Shown: positions 1 through 15,941, counted from the stretch's first letter. The stretch: 64,000 nt of DNA from Escherichia coli (GCF_050920415.1 NZ_CP169310.1), one strand, 5' to 3'. The notes: a model not told the origin generated them from the letters alone. A program made the numbers and translations.

Positions 1-1175
1 ACTTCGCAGATATTTGTATAACGTAAAAATGCTACACGCAACGTATTAAATCTGCCGTACTTCGCCTCAATGTTCAGGGTAAGATTTATGCTCAGTGCGG
101 CAGATATACAAATGAACTCAGCTTTAAGGTTTCAGCTCACAAATCTTAGCATTTGATATTGTATCTTGTTGAAAATGTTGTACTGAATGTATATAAAAAC
201 TAAGGACACATTATTCTGACTGAATCATTCCTTACCCCTCTGCATGCTCTCAGAGGGATTTTTTTATTTCCTGAATGAATAATAAAATGAAGGTGCGACT
301 CCGATACCACCATTTACATCATTACCCCTGATATACAGTACCGGAATCGCATTAATATCATGTTACATGTTTTGTTTTTTCATGTCCAGAATAATGGGGG
401 GAAGCTTCTGTTGCGAAATAATATGCAAATCATGTCTTCTGGTGTTTGTTTTTAACTTATTGTCTTACTTGTGCTTTGCTTATAGTGCCTGATAACTCTT
501 CGGTTTGTTGTGAGTATAAAAAACCCCTGGTAACTCAGGGGTAAGAGAACAAATGAATGCTCAGTTTATGTTGCACTTTAAACTAATGGAACTATAGAGG
601 AGGTTGTTACATTTCCACTTATAAATCACCCACTCCTTTTTTGCAATAGATTAATATTAATTGTAAAATTTTTGTGATGTTGATCAGGGTATTTTTAGTT
701 ATTTATTGACCATGGACTCTGCCATAGTTTCTGCGTATCAACTGATAAGAGATAAGCTTTTGTTTTGAGTTTTTATTAAAAATGCGATTTATCTCACAAA
801 AAAATAATCATATAAACATGAAGGAGTTAATGGATAAATGCATATATCTTTAAAGTATTGTGCAGATGGTTATTCTTGTTTTTGTTTACTCGAATGGTTG
901 TTTTGTCTGATGTGAGTTTATTGATGCGTATTAATTATACGCCAGAAGCTTAAGTTAAGTATTGAAATCAGTGGGCTGTACGGTTAAATTTTTGTTTCAG
1001 CGTAGCTGATTCATCGTTATTCGAATATGACCAACGCACCTGTAATTGTTGTTTCTCTTGGAGCCCCCACTTTTTTGTGGGGATTTTTTTATTCCATGTG
1101 TCGTTAAAGGGATACACCCGGAATATGTAATTGTTCCACATAAGAAGAATTAAGCTGAATGACATTATGATTAGA
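1..1175. repeat. Left arm of a ~1.16-kb AT-rich, essentially non-coding inverted repeat (partner 14780-15941); cut by the window start, so it may be longer
   Basis: The reverse complement of 15941->14780 matches 1->~1175 with scattered mismatches (about 95% by eye). It contains hairpin plus T-run motifs at 236-266 (+), 518-541 (minus sense) and 1064-1090 (+). The only >=60-aa ORF (968-1189) is not conserved in the partner. Confidence 0.85.
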
Positions 1176-1983
1176 AATCGTCTCTCCATGCCTTACATAC
1201 CAGTGAACGGATATGTCCATCCGGTTGACTGATGCAGATACATGGGGCAAAAGTGGAGTATACCGACCATGGCTGATAACAGCAAGATGCTCAGAAAAAC
1301 ATGGCTACACGTTCTTAACCTGACCCTTTTTCCATTCAGATATAATATCTCATCCGTTCAGGTGCGCTCTTCGTTACTCAAAATAATCACAGATTATATC
1401 TCATCCACATAATTACCGGAACCATGAGTTTTCCACGTTACGGATATCATATGTCTGACGTAAAAAACACCAGCTTCCGGAGAGACTTTCTCTGTATCCG
1501 AAAAAGAATGTTTTATAAAACATAGCATTTTCACCATAATGTCCATAGTGCCACGGGGATATAATTTTTGCATCATTCCCTGCTACATTTTTAATCATAT
1601 TATTCTGCATACTTACCTGTCGTCGTAATGCAAAACTGCAATTCATCTTCTCTTTGCGGTATAAAAACTCACCATACCTGAAGGCATTAGCATGGTATAC
1701 GCGGGTTACAAGTTCCTATGTGCGTATTCCAACTGAACAGCCATCCAGTATATCTGTAAAGAAATAATTAAAATCTGAATTTAATTCCAGTGACAGGGAT
1801 GTAACATTATTCTTTTTGTAGGGCAGGTAATATGCTTTAAAAGTAATGTCCTCAGGAATATTATCTGTGGCCTGCATTAACTTATATGAAGGAATACTTC
1901 CCCGGACAGGACAGCTATAATTACCGGCTTGCTTTTGAAAATAAAAATTACCTGTTTTCTTTTCAGATGAATCAGAAAAGAAA

Positions 1984-2112
1984 TCGAGTAGGCAGCCTGA
2001 CGGCTGCGGCTTGTCATGGCCTGAGATTACCGTTATAAAAACAGACAATGTCATTGTCTTTCAGTTAGTTATACGGTCCGTTCAGCTAAACCTCGCAAAC
2101 AAAAATCCGGCG
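1984..2112 (+). mobile_element. IS91-family left-end fragment (terminus TCGAGTAGGC... plus the first codons of orf121, start codon lost)
   Basis: Aligns by eye with 16370-16500 and 55366-55495 (tcgagtaggcagcctgacggctgcggcttgtcatgg...cagttagttata...ttcagctaaacctcg). Confidence 0.7.
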
Positions 2113-2208
2113 ATCTTCAGCAATAGTCTGCGCACGTTTGGTAGCCAGATCATCATTATTCATGGTTATTGCATCTCCGTCAGACGTTTTTATATCCGGA
2201 CAGCCCCT

Positions 2209-2350
2209 CTATGGCCACTTCTGTGCGGTATGCGATACGCGCAGGATATACACTTTTCCCCACAGGCTATCGACCTCATAAACCAGAACAAAATGCGGGT
2301 GAATAACCAGTTCCCGGGTACCTTCCACACGACCGTTGCGGCCTTTTATA
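2209..2350 (-). pseudogene. 3' remnant of a RelE/ParE-family toxin gene; the 5' part is lost at the IS1414 boundary
   Basis: The minus-strand translation IKGRNGRVEGTRELVIHPHFVLVYEVDSLWGKVYILRVSHTAQKWP* has the typical ParE/RelE C-terminal signature (..YEV....V.ILRV.H.AQ.WP). There is no start codon and no antitoxin partner. Confidence 0.5.
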
Positions 2351-2384
2351 GAGCCTGTTTAAGATTCTGTGTAAATGCCTTTTC

Positions 2385-12888: not shown

Positions 12889-13130
12889 TTAAAAAATTAA
12901 TTTTTGGTGCGTAACTTGTATAATGGATGAAAACATCTGGTAATATTGTCACAGACGTGAGGAGGCTGCAGATACGGAAGTGTCATACATCAGTATATGC
13001 TCATATGTCTATCGTCGTGTCTGGACTATACACAGATGACCGTCCCGTAACGAGGAATTGCCTCCGTGAATGCCGCGTTTATCGGATAATGAGTGAAAAT
13101 AACCTCTTGTTGTTACATGACAAATCTTTG

Positions 13131-13830
13131 TGATTGTAGTGGATCGGTAATTCAGGACACCTCGAAATCCTGTTAATGTTAAAACAGTGAATGTGAGGGT
13201 GATGTATGATCAAAACTCGTCGGACTAAACGCACATTTTCCCCGGAGTTCAGGCTCGAAGCTATCGAACAGGTTGTTAAATACCAGCGAGATGCTCGGGA
13301 AGTTGATCAGGCGCTCTAACTCAACCCTGACCATTTGCGCAAATGGATACGCCTGTACAAACAAGAGATTCAAGGTGTTGAGCCCGTCGGCAAGGCCATT
13401 ACCCCTGAACAACGCGAAATTCAGCAGCTTAAAGCGCAGATAAAGCGTCTTGAGATGGAAAAGAAATCCTGAAGCAGGCTGCCGTGCTGATGAGCGAAGC
13501 CCCGGAAAGTTATTGCGCTAATCGCACGGCTCAAAGCAAAGTGGCCTGTGCAGATTCTTTGTTATCTGTTCGGTGTTCACCGTAGCGTTTATTACGCACA
13601 GGTGAAGCGTCCCATTGATGTGCAAAGAATTGAGTTACGAAGTCAGGTGAGAGCGCTTCGTGGCGCTGCGGGTAGTCGGGCAATCAGCCAGATGTTGCGC
13701 CAGAGTGGCGTTGATGCAGGCCGGTGGCTGGCGCGATGACTGATGCAGGAATGTGGACTGGCAAGTCGTCAACCCGTGAAACATCGCTACCGGGCAAACG
13801 AAGACAACAGCCAGGCTGAAACTATGTGAT
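13131..13830 (+). pseudogene. IS3-family element remnant (orfA with an in-frame stop, fragmentary orfB)
   Basis: IR-like start tgattgtagtgg...; MIKTRRTKRTFSPEFRLEAIEQVVKYQRDAREVDQAL*..., then a ...EIQQLKAQIKRLEMEK leucine-zipper region and frameshifts. Confidence 0.7.
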
Positions 13831-14515
13831 TTCCGTCAACAGTTACTGTTCAGTATTCTCCGTCCATCAATGGATTTAGACGAATATAGTGATATATTAT
13901 CTAAATTATAATAATCTTTATATTTCTGTTTTAAAATGTTTATAAGCTACATCTTATTCCCTACAATATATTCACAAAAATTTGGAATAAAGAATGTCGA
14001 CCATTTTTTATAAATTCTGTAGTATGTGACATTGTACCATTTGAAAGAGATAAATTAACAATATAAGAATCATCCTTTATATTATAGATTTCAACAGGAT
14101 TTACATCCCTTTTTTTAGCTGTATCTTTCCGTTTTTTATTAAATATGGGCCTTTAATGGTTCCGCTTTCATATGCAAGTAACATTCTTCTGTATCTTGAG
14201 GAAAATGCATATGTCTTACTAAAAAAATGAAATCACACTTTATGTCGTTTAATTTGTTATATGTAATCAATACACATGAAAAAACATAATCCATTATATA
14301 TACTTCTGTCTGTATTTGAGACTTTATGAATTCAGCTTGAGAAAACTTAAATATATTTTCAATATTTATCTGTATGTTTTATAGGTTTATTTATGAACTT
14401 TAGAGTAAAATTATAACTTAATCTGACATAGGTTTTTATGATATATATCATTGAAATTGTAATTTCATATATATGTATACATGAGAGTGAGTGGCACTGT
14501 AAATGACCTGAATGC

Positions 14516-14652
14516 TTCAGGGCTTCACTGCGAAATTCAGGCGAATGCTGTTTACGTGTTTTTTCTGATTGATACTGTTTTTGTCATGTGAGTCACCTCT
14601 GACTGAAAGTTTACTCACTTAGCTGCGTGTCCACTATTGCTGGGTAAGATCA
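14516..14652 (-). mobile_element. Second copy of the IS3-like left end (137 bp), including the same outside flank ggtgtYtgga
   Basis: Aligns with 11616-11754; both are followed by ggtgt(t/c)tgga. Confidence 0.8.
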
Positions 14653-14779
14653 GGTGTCTGGAAAACAAACCACACTGAGGATGCTTTTTATCCAGTTCGC
14701 TGATGAGACTTCACCAGAACTGTTCTGTTTTTGTGTCTGAAATCGAACAGTTCTGTACAAGACAGGATGCAATAACTTG

Positions 14780-15941
14780 CTCAGATTAATTCTTCTTAGT
14801 GTGGAACAATTACGTTTTCCGGGCGTATCCCTTTAACGACACACGGAATAAAAAAATCCCCACAAAAAAGTGGGGGCTCCAAGAGAAACAACAATTACAG
14901 GTGCGTTGGTCATATTCGAATAACGATGAATCAGCTACGCTGAAACAAAAATTTAACCGTACAGCCTACTGATTTCAATACTTAACTTAAGCTCCTGGCG
15001 TATAATTAATACGCATCAACAAACTCACATCAGACAAAACAACCATTCGAGTAAACAAAAACAAGAATAACCATCTGCACAATACTTTAAAGATATATGC
15101 ATTTATCCATTAACTCCTTCATGTTTATATGATTATTTTTTTGTGAGATAAATCGCATTTTTAATAAAAACTCAAAACAAAAGCTTATCTCTTATCAGTT
15201 GATACGCAGAAACTATGGCAGAGTCCATGGTCAATAAATAACTAAAAATACCCTGATCAATATCACAAAAATTTTACATTTAATATTAATCTATTGCAAA
15301 AAATGAGTGGGTGATTTATAAGTGGAAATGTAACAACCTCATCTATAGTTCCATTAGTTTAAAGTGCAACATAAACTGAGCATTCATTTGTTCTCTTACC
15401 CCTGTGTTACCAGGGGTTTTTTATACTCACAACAAACCGAAGAGTTATCAGGCACTATAAGCAAAGCACAAGTAAGACAATAAGTTAAAAAACAAACACC
15501 AGAAGACATGATTTGCATATTATTTCGCAACAGAAGCTTCCCCCCCATTATTCTGGACATGAAAAAACAAAACATGTAACATGATATTAATGCGATTCCG
15601 GTACTGTATATCAGGGGTAATGATGTAAATGGTGGTACCGGAGTCGCACCTTCATTTTATTATTCATTCAGGAAATAAAAAAATCCCTCTGAGAGCATGC
15701 AGAGGGGTAAGGAATGATTCAGTCAGAATAATGTGTCCTTAGTTTTTATATACATTCAGTACAACATTTTCAACAAGATACAATATCAAATGCTAAGATT
15801 TGTGAGCTGAAACCTTAAAGCTGGGTTCATTTGTATATCTGCCGCACTGAACATAAATCTTACCCTGAACATTGAGGCGAAGTACGGCTGATTTAATACG
15901 TTGCGTGCAACATTTTCACGTTATACAAACATCTGCGAAGT
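14780..15941. repeat. Right arm of the ~1.16-kb inverted repeat
   Basis: See feature 1-1175. There is no >=60-aa ORF anywhere in 13740-16244. Confidence 0.85.

Follow-up and report, generated by a model that had tools for sequence, protein, structure and literature searches.

The window, i.e., the whole stretch of DNA that was analysed (64,000 nucleotides from Escherichia coli), was part of pCFSAN004180G, a 225-kb conjugative STEC/ETEC virulence plasmid, and its position 1 corresponded to position 125404 of record NZ_CP012500.1. An ORF-free repeat unit occurred there in the following arrangement.

1..1158, minus strand: left arm; unit position 1 lies at window position 1158 and faces the module, and the outer ~150 bp lie beyond the window edge.
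1159..14780, no strand assigned: 13.6-kb segment between the arms, defined by annotation, ORF reading and plasmid comparison.
9727..10126, plus strand: third copy, truncated and ~80% identical, covering approximately unit positions 620-1103 in right-arm orientation.
14781..16091, plus strand: right arm, the full 1311-bp unit, defined by BLAST and source-record alignment.

The segment between the arms carried a 465-nt pseudogene, a yacB fragment, IS1414 with astA (the EAST1/astA reading frame sits within IS1414), the mhb gentisate-pathway genes and mhbR, together with the third copy, IS91 and IS3 fragments and a 321-aa hypothetical gene. These contents agreed with a preliminary description made from the sequence, which had listed astA/IS1414, the mhb cluster and a cyclase-like gene. 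The full arms were 1311 bp in length and 98.0% identical in inverted orientation (L002 12255-13562 versus 27185-28495), and a match of such length and identity far exceeds what chance would give. Inverted copies had been placed at 1-1175 and 14780-15941 with ~95% identity; the inverted repeat was recovered at 1-1158 and 14781-15941, but its identity was ~98%. The source record contained ~150 bp more of the repeat outside the window, in keeping with the earlier statement that the left copy is cut by the window edge. The outer end of the left arm adjoined a partial IS3-family (IS2) element, annotated as IS3-family at this place and as IS2 on the flank in other records, and the traced arm ends comprised one IS-fragment junction and one plain junction. 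The GC content of the unit was 33-37%, and no ORF of at least 60 aa was found across 13740-16244; both results matched what had been claimed of an AT-rich, ORF-free repeat.

The third copy was matched by BLAST at 9754-10126 with 79.8% identity and 31 gap positions. A remnant of the unit's second terminator, T2 (CCCCTGTGTTACCA), was still recognisable; it began at 9727, 8 nt past the mhbR stop codon (9717-9719), and the broken T2 was followed by an internal deletion of ~55 nt. Hence, the coordinates in the previous account of this copy (9727-10128, ~80% identity, an internal deletion of ~50 bp, a start 8 bp past the mhbR stop and the orientation of the right arm) were right. The 16-bp hairpin and the third terminator, T3, were intact. 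The right end of the third copy adjoined a 79-nt sequence recurring beside IS1414 (repeat D5, 10141-10219 = 2342-2420), which is probably an IS1414 end.

The only homologue of the unit was an ORF-free, unannotated sequence that takes the place of the colicin operon in ~5.16-kb ColE2-like Col156 mobilizable plasmids (~70% identity over 1.18 kb). Unit positions 53-1229 (window 14833-16009) matched this cargo-slot region collinearly, with 70-71% identity to positions 2585-3713 of the Col156 plasmid L005 and E values of 6e-74 to 7e-80 in ~290 records, and the reciprocal search and two alignments agreed. The high-identity unit was present in 26 of 5426 complete E. coli genomes, on plasmids only, and was never annotated at these occurrences. 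The distant search recovered homologues in 354 of the 5426 genomes (~6.5%); 526 of the 527 places were on plasmids, nearly all of them ~5.16-kb Col156 plasmids, and one was chromosomal. Phage records gave no match to the unit. The Col156 module was flanked by the rep/cer-like region on one side and by the ORF69/mob genes on the other. In ColE9-J, the rep/cer region alone was common to Col156, and a colicin operon occupied the slot of the module. The homology ended at the cargo-slot borders, not at random points of the small-plasmid backbone, and no Rep, Mob or ORF69 remnants were found next to the unit in the large plasmids.

The Col156-type small plasmids have been termed cryptic (PMC4270462, PMC6856555). 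A cer-type Xer site was rejected as the identity of the module, because the sole core site of the Col156 plasmid (GGTACGTACAA-CGGGAG-TTATGGTAAAT, L005 2178-2205) lay outside it. A MOBQ4 oriT was likewise rejected; the oriT has been mapped to the mobC-mobA intergenic region (PMC6856555), which spans 178 bp (5899-6076 in L007) and lies ~1.8 kb away from the module. The copies in the window resembled the Col156 region (e.g., pJJ1886-2, NC_022649, and p4_2_1.3, NZ_CP023837) in the order of their three terminators and in having promoter-like boxes, the 16-bp hairpin and the remaining conserved islands in common with it. They differed from it in lying on a 225-kb conjugative virulence plasmid without adjacent rep/mob, in comprising two inverted full copies and a truncated one, and in having no island-specific constraint. 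Among the three interpretations first suggested for the repeat, a duplicated plasmid intergenic region was the closest, since the unit is homologous to an ORF-free region of Col156.

No ORF was conserved between the large-plasmid unit and its Col156 homologue, and neither tRNAs nor tandem repeats were found in the unit. Three intrinsic-terminator-like hairpins were located, T1 (minus strand, 14858-14875), T2 (plus strand, 15398-15417) and T3 (minus strand, 15685-15706), which accounted for the three hairpin and T-run structures facing both directions that had been noticed earlier. This number compared with 0.7 +/- 0.8 in shuffled sequences; the terminators occupied conserved positions in both lineages and were in excess over shuffles in each. 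Promoter-like sites were not enriched relative to shuffles (5 found, 5.6 expected). The conserved islands look like small-RNA cassettes, as predicted from the following elements.

14848..14978, minus strand: candidate small-RNA cassette 1, with TTGAAA-17-TAAATT (14978-14950), a conserved body and T1 (14875-14858) plus a U-run.
15294..15426, plus strand: candidate small-RNA cassette 2, with TTGCAA-17-TATAAG (15294-15322), a body of ~100 nt and T2 (15398-15417).
15554..15648, plus strand: promoter-like box TGGACA-17-TAACAT (15554-15582), conserved in Col156, and a hairpin (15591-15648).
15677..15773, minus strand: candidate small-RNA cassette 3, with TTGAAA-17-TATAAA (15773-15745), a body of ~62 nt and T3 (15706-15685); folding z -3.3.
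15797..16012, no strand assigned: other conserved islands, GAGCTGAAACCTTAAAGCT and 15885-16012.

Cassette 1 was 80-93% identical to Col156 across 14859-14948, with a folding z of -2.0 and no conserved ORF, and its T1 had a homologous terminator at 2627-2612 of L005. The body of cassette 2 was 87-90% identical to Col156, and the 7.4-kb Col156 derivatives, which lacked two thirds of the module, also retained the 3' half and the terminator of this cassette. The hairpin at 15591-15648 had a 16-bp stem, a conserved loop of ~29 nt and a z of -5.0, and its stability was -30.8 kcal/mol on the plus strand versus -21.2 kcal/mol on the other strand. Its variation consisted of one compensatory A-U/G-C pair and several G-U changes, the wobbles of which were tolerated on the plus strand only. 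Cassette 3 was antisense to the plus-strand sequence GGGGUAAGGAAUG located 3' of the hairpin. The islands at 15797-16012 had no excess folding energy; their Col156 counterpart ended in a plus-strand terminator-like hairpin, which was degraded in the large-plasmid unit. The Rfam scan for known RNAs proposed for the repeat matched no family: among the Rfam 15 covariance models (including RNAI, CopA, Sok, Rcd-like and ctRNAs), the best E value was 2-4, at less than half of the gathering score. The predicted cassettes were similar to plasmid antisense and small-RNA loci (ColE1 RNAI and Rcd, ColE2 RNAI, R1 CopA and Sok) in being short promoter-terminator units in ORF-free DNA and in having an antisense pair, here candidate cassette 3 versus the plus-strand hairpin transcript. 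They differed from these loci in having no Rfam match and no evident target gene, in the position of the module apart from the rep control region and the Xer site, and in being predicted from the sequence.

In the Col156 small plasmids, polymorphic sites made up 2.5-3.2% of the islands and 14-15% of the variable parts (p 1e-8 to 2e-8), whereas the values for the large-plasmid copies (6-13 copies) were 8-10% and 9-10%, respectively (p 0.5-0.9). Judged from these densities, the islands were shown to be under purifying selection in the small plasmids and without site-specific constraint in the large-plasmid copies. Hence, the large-plasmid copies look like relics, a status read from the uniform substitution density only, in which recent gene conversion could blur the signal of constraint. 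The earlier suggestion of a carrier of sRNA or terminator functions was thus divided. It is plausible for the ancestral module, given the conserved terminators, promoter-like boxes and hairpin and the constraint in the small plasmids; the large-plasmid copies had no such constraint.

The plasmids pN96-1 and pCFSAN004179G were 99.8-99.9% identical, with the segment from arm to arm flipped, and a relative of the 1159..14780 segment had the opposite orientation in pN96-1. The flip was clean, and its breakpoints lay within both arms (L081 versus L083 alignments). The arms of pN96-1 were reciprocal chimeras at 13 of 15 diagnostic sites, where the flipped configuration came from this one assembly and identical chimeras would also result from a mis-join across the 1.3-kb repeat. 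Both arms carried the same parental alleles at positions 222-1026, and the crossover points lay at different places in the two 1.3-kb arms. Moreover, the right arm of pOkiPb01710 had left-arm alleles and 214 bp of the IS2 flank of the left arm, and this allele pattern shows an arm-to-arm gene conversion. The expectation that recombination between the arms inverts the module was therefore supported by the opposite orientations in two near-identical plasmids with breakpoints inside the arms, as well as by the conversion in pOkiPb01710. The arrangement was akin to inversions by homologous recombination (e.g., between inverted IS copies or rrn operons) in its long inverted homology, both orientations, reciprocal chimeras and conversion tract; the repeat itself differed, being neither an IS nor an rRNA operon but apparently non-coding relic DNA.

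No invertase, integrase or recombinase gene was annotated in or beside the segment, and neither a promoter-gene pair connected or disconnected by the flip nor a gene-expression switch was found. A site-specific invertible switch was rejected because of the lack of an adjacent invertase or integrase and the exchange points scattered within the 1.3-kb arms. Site-specific switches (Hin/Gin/Fim and the R64 shufflon) also have a block bounded by inverted repeats in two orientations; the present locus differed from them in the absence of a recombinase gene, in arms of 1.3 kb instead of 14-31 bp, and in the unequal crossover points.

The best explanation, with a probability of roughly 0.7, is that the repeat is a segmental relic from a Col156-type module that now provides inverted homology for recombination and is not a mobile element. 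The ORF-free module of ~1.2 kb would normally fill the cargo slot (the colicin-operon position) of ColE2-like Col156/MOBQ plasmids, in which it appears to behave like functional non-coding DNA with three putative promoter-terminator cassettes of ~60-100 nt and a strand-specific 16-bp hairpin. A large STEC/ETEC virulence plasmid may have acquired a relative of the module within an accessory region rich in IS elements, and IS-associated rearrangements may then have duplicated this relative in inverted orientation; the truncated copy beside mhbR would be an older relative. The transfer could have proceeded from small to large plasmid, in reverse, or to both from a third source. Through the 1.3-kb inverted homology of the arms, general and presumably RecA-dependent recombination would flip the 13-kb mhb/astA block, arm-to-arm gene conversion would homogenise the arms, and no site-specific recombinase would take part. 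At present, the arms seem to act chiefly as a homologous substrate for recombination.

Both full arms retained intact terminators and promoter-like boxes, and the RNAs may thus continue to be produced and to act. As a tentative proposal with perhaps one chance in four, the 1.2-kb module would be the real cargo of the common Col156 plasmids, i.e., two to three small regulatory RNAs, among them a cis-antisense pair and a hairpin RNA specific to one strand, that act on genes of the host or a helper plasmid and are still expressed from the virulence-plasmid copies. It is fairly unlikely that the large-plasmid copies are still functional and have been retained because they express small RNAs or insulate the accessory module bidirectionally. 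The three intact terminators, boxes and hairpin of both arms would fit such a role, as would the islands being 10-20% diverged from Col156 with saturated spacers and the hairpin and T3 retained in the third copy. However, substitutions among the 13 large-plasmid copies were as frequent in the islands as elsewhere, T2 of the third copy was broken, IS elements truncated the copies at different points in different plasmids, and p1RM9088 lacked the right arm at this locus.

Small mobilizable theta plasmids require ssi-type priming sites. The ancestral islands might accordingly act as single-stranded or protein-binding DNA, e.g., as an ssi/primosome assembly site for lagging-strand or post-conjugative complementary-strand synthesis, which is rather unlikely. 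The strand asymmetry of the hairpin, with G-T wobbles on one strand alone, suits single-stranded DNA as well as RNA, and the islands at 15797-16012 do not fold in excess. Nevertheless, three Rho-independent terminators with U-runs ~60-100 nt 3' of conserved -35/-10-like boxes are features of transcription units, and the 7.4-kb derivatives do without most of the module. Furthermore, IS1 or IS200 was annotated under the match in some small plasmids; hence, the query region is probably not essential for replication.

With regard to the relic interpretation, the proposal of a non-autonomous mobile element (large and MITE-like or IS-derived), with the two arms forming a composite-transposon-like structure for moving the mhb/astA module, is very improbable. 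A repeated ORF-free unit does bracket an accessory block, as in composite transposons with MITE-like arms, and it occurs in two unrelated plasmid backbones without their neighbouring genes. However, scanning the unit together with its flanks revealed no terminal inverted repeats, no target-site duplications or flanking direct repeats were found at the unit, and with no ORF of at least 60 aa it had no transposase, so the noted absence of transposase and IS-like termini stood and an IS or MITE was rejected. Arm ends varied between copies, with native sequence extending past them in L003, L004 and L084, and one arm end (the IS2 junction) and one third-copy end adjoined IS fragments. The copies in different plasmids were at orthologous positions and not at many insertion sites, a distribution matched by the single chromosomal place and the lack of phage matches. 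Equally improbable is an assembly artefact behind the repeats or the flipped configuration: short-read or hybrid assemblers can collapse repeats of 1.3 kb or place them in the wrong orientation, and the flip was in a single record, but the three-copy layout recurred in plasmids of US, Japanese and Chinese origin that had been assembled independently, the arms differed by 13-40 substitutions, unlike a collapsed repeat, and the shared alleles at 222-1026 of pN96-1 were unlike a simple mis-join.

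The window was identical to part of pCFSAN004180G from E. coli 09-00049 (NZ_CP012500.1), a 225-kb conjugative STEC/ETEC hybrid plasmid carrying ehx, two sta1 genes, astA and the mhb cluster; position 1 of the window is position 125404 of the record. The inverted repeat reported in the preliminary description was recovered by a repeat finder and BLAST at 1-1158 and 14781-15941, with an identity of about 98% rather than about 95%. The full arms, obtained by reading the record upstream of the window, measured 1311 bp at 98.0% identity. The repeat was AT-rich (GC content 33-37%), no ORF of at least 60 aa was present within 13740-16244, and three terminator-like hairpins (T1, T2 and T3) were found against 0.7 ± 0.8 in shuffled sequences. 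The third copy, likewise noticed earlier, was also found. These results confirm the earlier observation, with slight corrections to its identity and length figures.

Copies of the repeat (window coordinates)
1-1158, left arm, extending about 150 bp past the window edge
9754-10126, third copy by BLAST, 79.8% identity, right-arm orientation; a T2 remnant starts at 9727, 8 nt 3' of the mhbR stop, and is followed by an internal deletion of about 55 nt
14781-16091, right arm

The most fitting description of the repeat is a set of relic copies of a non-coding module from Col156-type small plasmids; these copies are now substrates for homologous recombination. At high identity, the 1311-bp unit was found on plasmids only and was never annotated; 26 of 5426 complete E. 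coli genomes had it. A distant search aligned unit positions 53-1229 with an unannotated sequence of some 290 small plasmids, each near 5.16 kb, at about 70% identity and E values of 6e-74 to 7e-80; these plasmids were typed as rep_cluster_2131/Col156, MOBQ and mobilizable. This homologue was present in 354 of the 5426 complete genomes (about 6.5%), and 526 of its 527 places were on plasmids, nearly all of Col156 type; many of the carriers were clinical isolates. The reciprocal search with the small-plasmid region gave the identical record set and nothing further. Moreover, tblastn with the Col156 Rep, MobA, ORF69, ORF177 and ORF132 proteins revealed no remnants beside the unit in the large-plasmid loci, and the ORF-free module alone was common to the small and large plasmids.

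In the small plasmid NZ_CP023837.1 (L005), the homologous 1.13 kb lay between a rep/cer-like region and a 69-aa ORF, which was followed by the mob genes. ColE9-J and L005 had only the rep/cer backbone in common, so homology of the module to the ColE9-J colicin operon or its flanks was rejected. The module occupies the cargo position of the small plasmid, because it is placed between rep/cer and mob and the ColE9-J colicin operon fills the corresponding slot. In this plasmid group, mapping placed oriT between mobC and mobA, in a 178-bp intergenic region (PMC6856555). The small Col156 plasmids were called cryptic, with no phenotype (PMC4270462), and no functional description of the module region was found in the literature reached. 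A near-consensus, unannotated Xer core with a 6-bp spacer, GGTACGTACAA-CGGGAG-TTATGGTAAAT, was located at 2178-2205 of L005 on the minus strand, outside the module; a Xer/cer site within the module was rejected on this basis. Multimers of the Col156 small plasmids are probably resolved at this core.

The identity between the right arm and Col156 was very uneven, with islands of 80-93% divided by stretches of 20-45%. The positions of T1, T2 and T3 were all kept in Col156, and each terminator was about 60-100 nt downstream of -35/-10-like boxes that were also kept there.

Islands of 80-93% identity, right arm against Col156 (window coordinates)
14859-14948
15327-15392
15578-15650
15688-15766
15797-15826
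15885-16012

Candidate small-RNA cassettes
Cassette 1, minus strand, TTGAAA-17-TAAATT, terminator T1
Cassette 2, plus strand, TTGCAA-17-TATAAG (TTGAAA-17-TATAAA in Col156), terminator T2
Cassette 3, minus strand, TTGAAA-17-TATAAA, terminator T3

A fourth promoter-like pair, TGGACA-17-TAACAT, was conserved on the plus strand and directly followed by a hairpin whose 16-bp stem closes a conserved loop of about 29 nt. The folding energy of the hairpin was -30.8 kcal/mol (z -5.0) on the plus strand and -21.2 kcal/mol on the minus strand. Across four lineages, the hairpin had a single compensatory change, from A-U to G-C, together with many G-U wobbles, which fit pairing on the plus strand only. Cassette 3 is antisense to the plus-strand sequence just 3' of the hairpin. 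The islands look like small-RNA cassettes. The RNAs predicted from them would run from about 14943 to 14850 (minus strand), about 15329 to 15424 (plus strand) and about 15738 to 15677 (minus strand), and a further plus-strand RNA would begin near 15589. We infer such RNAs rather than observe them, because the promoter-like sites as a class had no enrichment over shuffles and the sequences were too alike for a proper test of covariation. The loci from the metagenome scan numbered 67 and were mostly of the 99% Col156 type, so the covariation tests, with their one compensatory pair, had low power. A less likely alternative is that the hairpin acts as single-stranded DNA.

The constraint on these islands was evaluated via the density of polymorphic sites in the islands and in the variable stretches of each lineage, and for the small plasmids the main type was compared with a 90% variant from metagenomes.

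Polymorphic-site density by lineage
Small plasmids: islands 2.5-3.2%, variable stretches 14-15%, p 1e-8 to 2e-8
Large-plasmid copies (6 to 13): islands 8-10%, variable stretches 9-10%, p 0.5-0.9

The contrast was robust to the island definition. The islands of the small plasmids are clearly under purifying selection, whereas no such selection on the islands was detectable among the 6 to 13 large-plasmid copies. Between the lineages, island divergence was low (10-20%) and the spacers were saturated, indicating constraint on the unit's ancestor through most of its past. Drift of the unit would have started only once it was embedded in a large plasmid, and we read the large-plasmid arms as relics. 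That these arms still act is unlikely in light of their polymorphism, and a small chance is kept for it because the terminators and boxes are intact. On the small plasmids, the 1.2-kb module is a constrained, never-annotated cargo that probably encodes RNA, and these "cryptic" plasmids are very common in E. coli. Such plasmids were reported without an adaptive gene, and the small-RNA-like islands provide a concrete, testable candidate for their cargo. For the window alone, the outcome is mostly a clarification, and this small-plasmid by-product may matter more than the window result.

The suggestion that the repeat is a non-autonomous mobile element was rejected. Neither an IS nor a MITE fitted the unit, which had no transposase, conserved ORF, terminal inverted repeats or flanking direct repeats. 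The arms owe their boundaries to accidental rearrangement. On its outer side, the left arm ended at a junction with a partial IS3-family element, annotated as IS2 in other records, and the junction sequence TGGATTTGCCCC is presumably an IS2 terminal repeat. The native sequence of the right arm ran on past 16091 in three of the compared loci (L003, L004 and L084), another IS3 fragment cut the L003 copy at unit position 198, and the right end of the third copy abutted a 79-nt sequence recurring beside IS1414. The Rfam scan proposed earlier for RNAs in the repeat gave no match at permissive thresholds in the window region, the whole Col156 plasmid or the unit alone, the last even at an E of 10. 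For the unit, no tRNAs, tandem repeats or phage-record matches were found, and searches for LexA boxes, iterons and internal paralogy were negative. No small ORF was conserved between lineages: every candidate, among them a hydrophobic 26-aa frame spanning T1 and a 36/46-aa frame within 15872-15982, was disrupted in the other lineage by a frameshift, a stop or the lack of a start codon, and was rejected.

The arms let ordinary recombination invert the block with mhb and astA, and the earlier inference of an invertible module gained support from natural variants. The window orientation was kept in pCFSAN004178P_02, pCFSAN004179G, pCFSAN004180G and pCFSAN004181P, each with both arms, and in the Okinawa series. 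A synthetic flipped-junction query, composed of the outside-left flank, the arm and the reverse complement of the inside-right flank, picked out pN96-1, in whose annotation the mhb block is reversed with respect to both the ehx/sta1 and the glycosyltransferase flanks. BLAST of pCFSAN004179G (179G) against pN96-1 gave three blocks of 99.8-99.9% identity: a forward block lay between two reversed ones, and the blocks overlapped exactly at both arms. Furthermore, the pN96-1 arms were reciprocal chimeras at the 15 sites distinguishing the 179G arms. On the hyp465 side, the arm carried alleles of the left arm innermost (positions 19-92) and of the right arm outward from 222, and the arm on the mhbR side had right-arm alleles to position 1026 and left-arm alleles outward from 1128. 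A crossover accompanied by a conversion tract leaves this pattern; an assembler mis-join would give similar chimeras. Independent evidence for recombination came from pOkiPb01710, which had the standard orientation and a right arm with left-arm alleles plus 214 bp of the left arm's IS2 flank (L087 from pOkiPb01710_1, 19082-20541), a gain that makes the inverted repeat longer; this arm is a product of gene conversion. The 179G arms had 13 differences between them, against 14 and 18 to their window-plasmid counterparts, which hints at partial homogenisation. No recombinase gene was found in or beside the segment, nor any promoter-gene pair that a flip would reconnect. Recombination between the arms explains structural variation among STEC/ETEC virulence plasmids, and the inverted arms are a warning for the assembly and comparison of such plasmids.

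Several further forms and fragments of the module were observed. In 7.4-kb Col156 derivatives, and in IncF cointegrates containing them, a FAD-dependent oxidoreductase and an ArsR/SmtB regulator replaced the stretch between cassette 2 and the hairpin (pEC931_4 1452-3618, L008 and the metagenome loci L018, L032, L039, L044, L049 and L061). Unit fragments were located 0.5-1.7 kb upstream of tssB in plasmid-borne type VI secretion clusters on IncF plasmids (L084 4001-4226, L085 4001-4175 and L009 4979-5176); they matched window 15894-16112 at 86-89% and window 15002-15201 at 73%. A pattern scan of genome contigs gave three matches to the small-plasmid form in non-E. coli assemblies. These short contigs, from Streptomyces flavalbus (L010), Moraxella sp. 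(L011) and a Lachnospiraceae MAG (L012), were 98-99.7% identical to the Col156 module over the compared part and are probably contaminating or mis-binned enterobacterial plasmid sequence. Module-bearing "plasmids" of about 3 kb were rejected as real plasmids because they are linear assembly fragments.

Other rearrangements were present near the arms. Two direct copies of sta1 (heat-stable enterotoxin STa) lay just outside them, at window 17619-17837 and, upstream of the window, at 10947-11165 of locus L002 from the plasmid record; each was inside a repeated, roughly 1.1-kb block that also contained IS91 remnants (L002 9814-10925 and 28763-30001, 94-97%). Thus sta1 was duplicated in direct orientation, whereas the ORF-free unit was inverted. 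A block with the glycosyltransferase, phosphotransferase and alginate-export genes and fdnGHI was reversed, in gene order as well as orientation, in pCFSAN004179G and pN96-1 compared with the window plasmid. This block (L081 from pCFSAN004179G, 23000-39292, against window 18700-32000 and L001) was bounded by IS630, IS66 and IS21 fragments, and its rearrangement is a second event unrelated to the arms. The EAST1 (astA) frame, MPSTQYIRRPASSYASCIWCATACASCHGRTTKPSLAT, was found within the IS1414 transposase gene, in a different reading frame (window 2385-3593, minus strand), and differs at one residue from the EAST1 sequence. A 465-nt pseudogene adjoined the left arm (window 1413-1877, minus strand). 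The gene was present in 43 plasmid records, some without the unit, and was intact in other plasmids, where its neighbours were a small "putative adhesin" gene with an Stv domain (L003 9518-9982 and 8986-9462) and an operon for chaperone-usher fimbriae; the Pfam search of the neighbouring hypothetical proteins gave no match except this Stv adhesin domain in L003. Finally, IS3-family fragments in direct orientation (window 11616-11764 and 14516-14662, 93-96%) and IS91 remnants in inverted orientation (window 10218-10439 and 17178-17401, 81-87%) are extra rearrangement substrates in the region.
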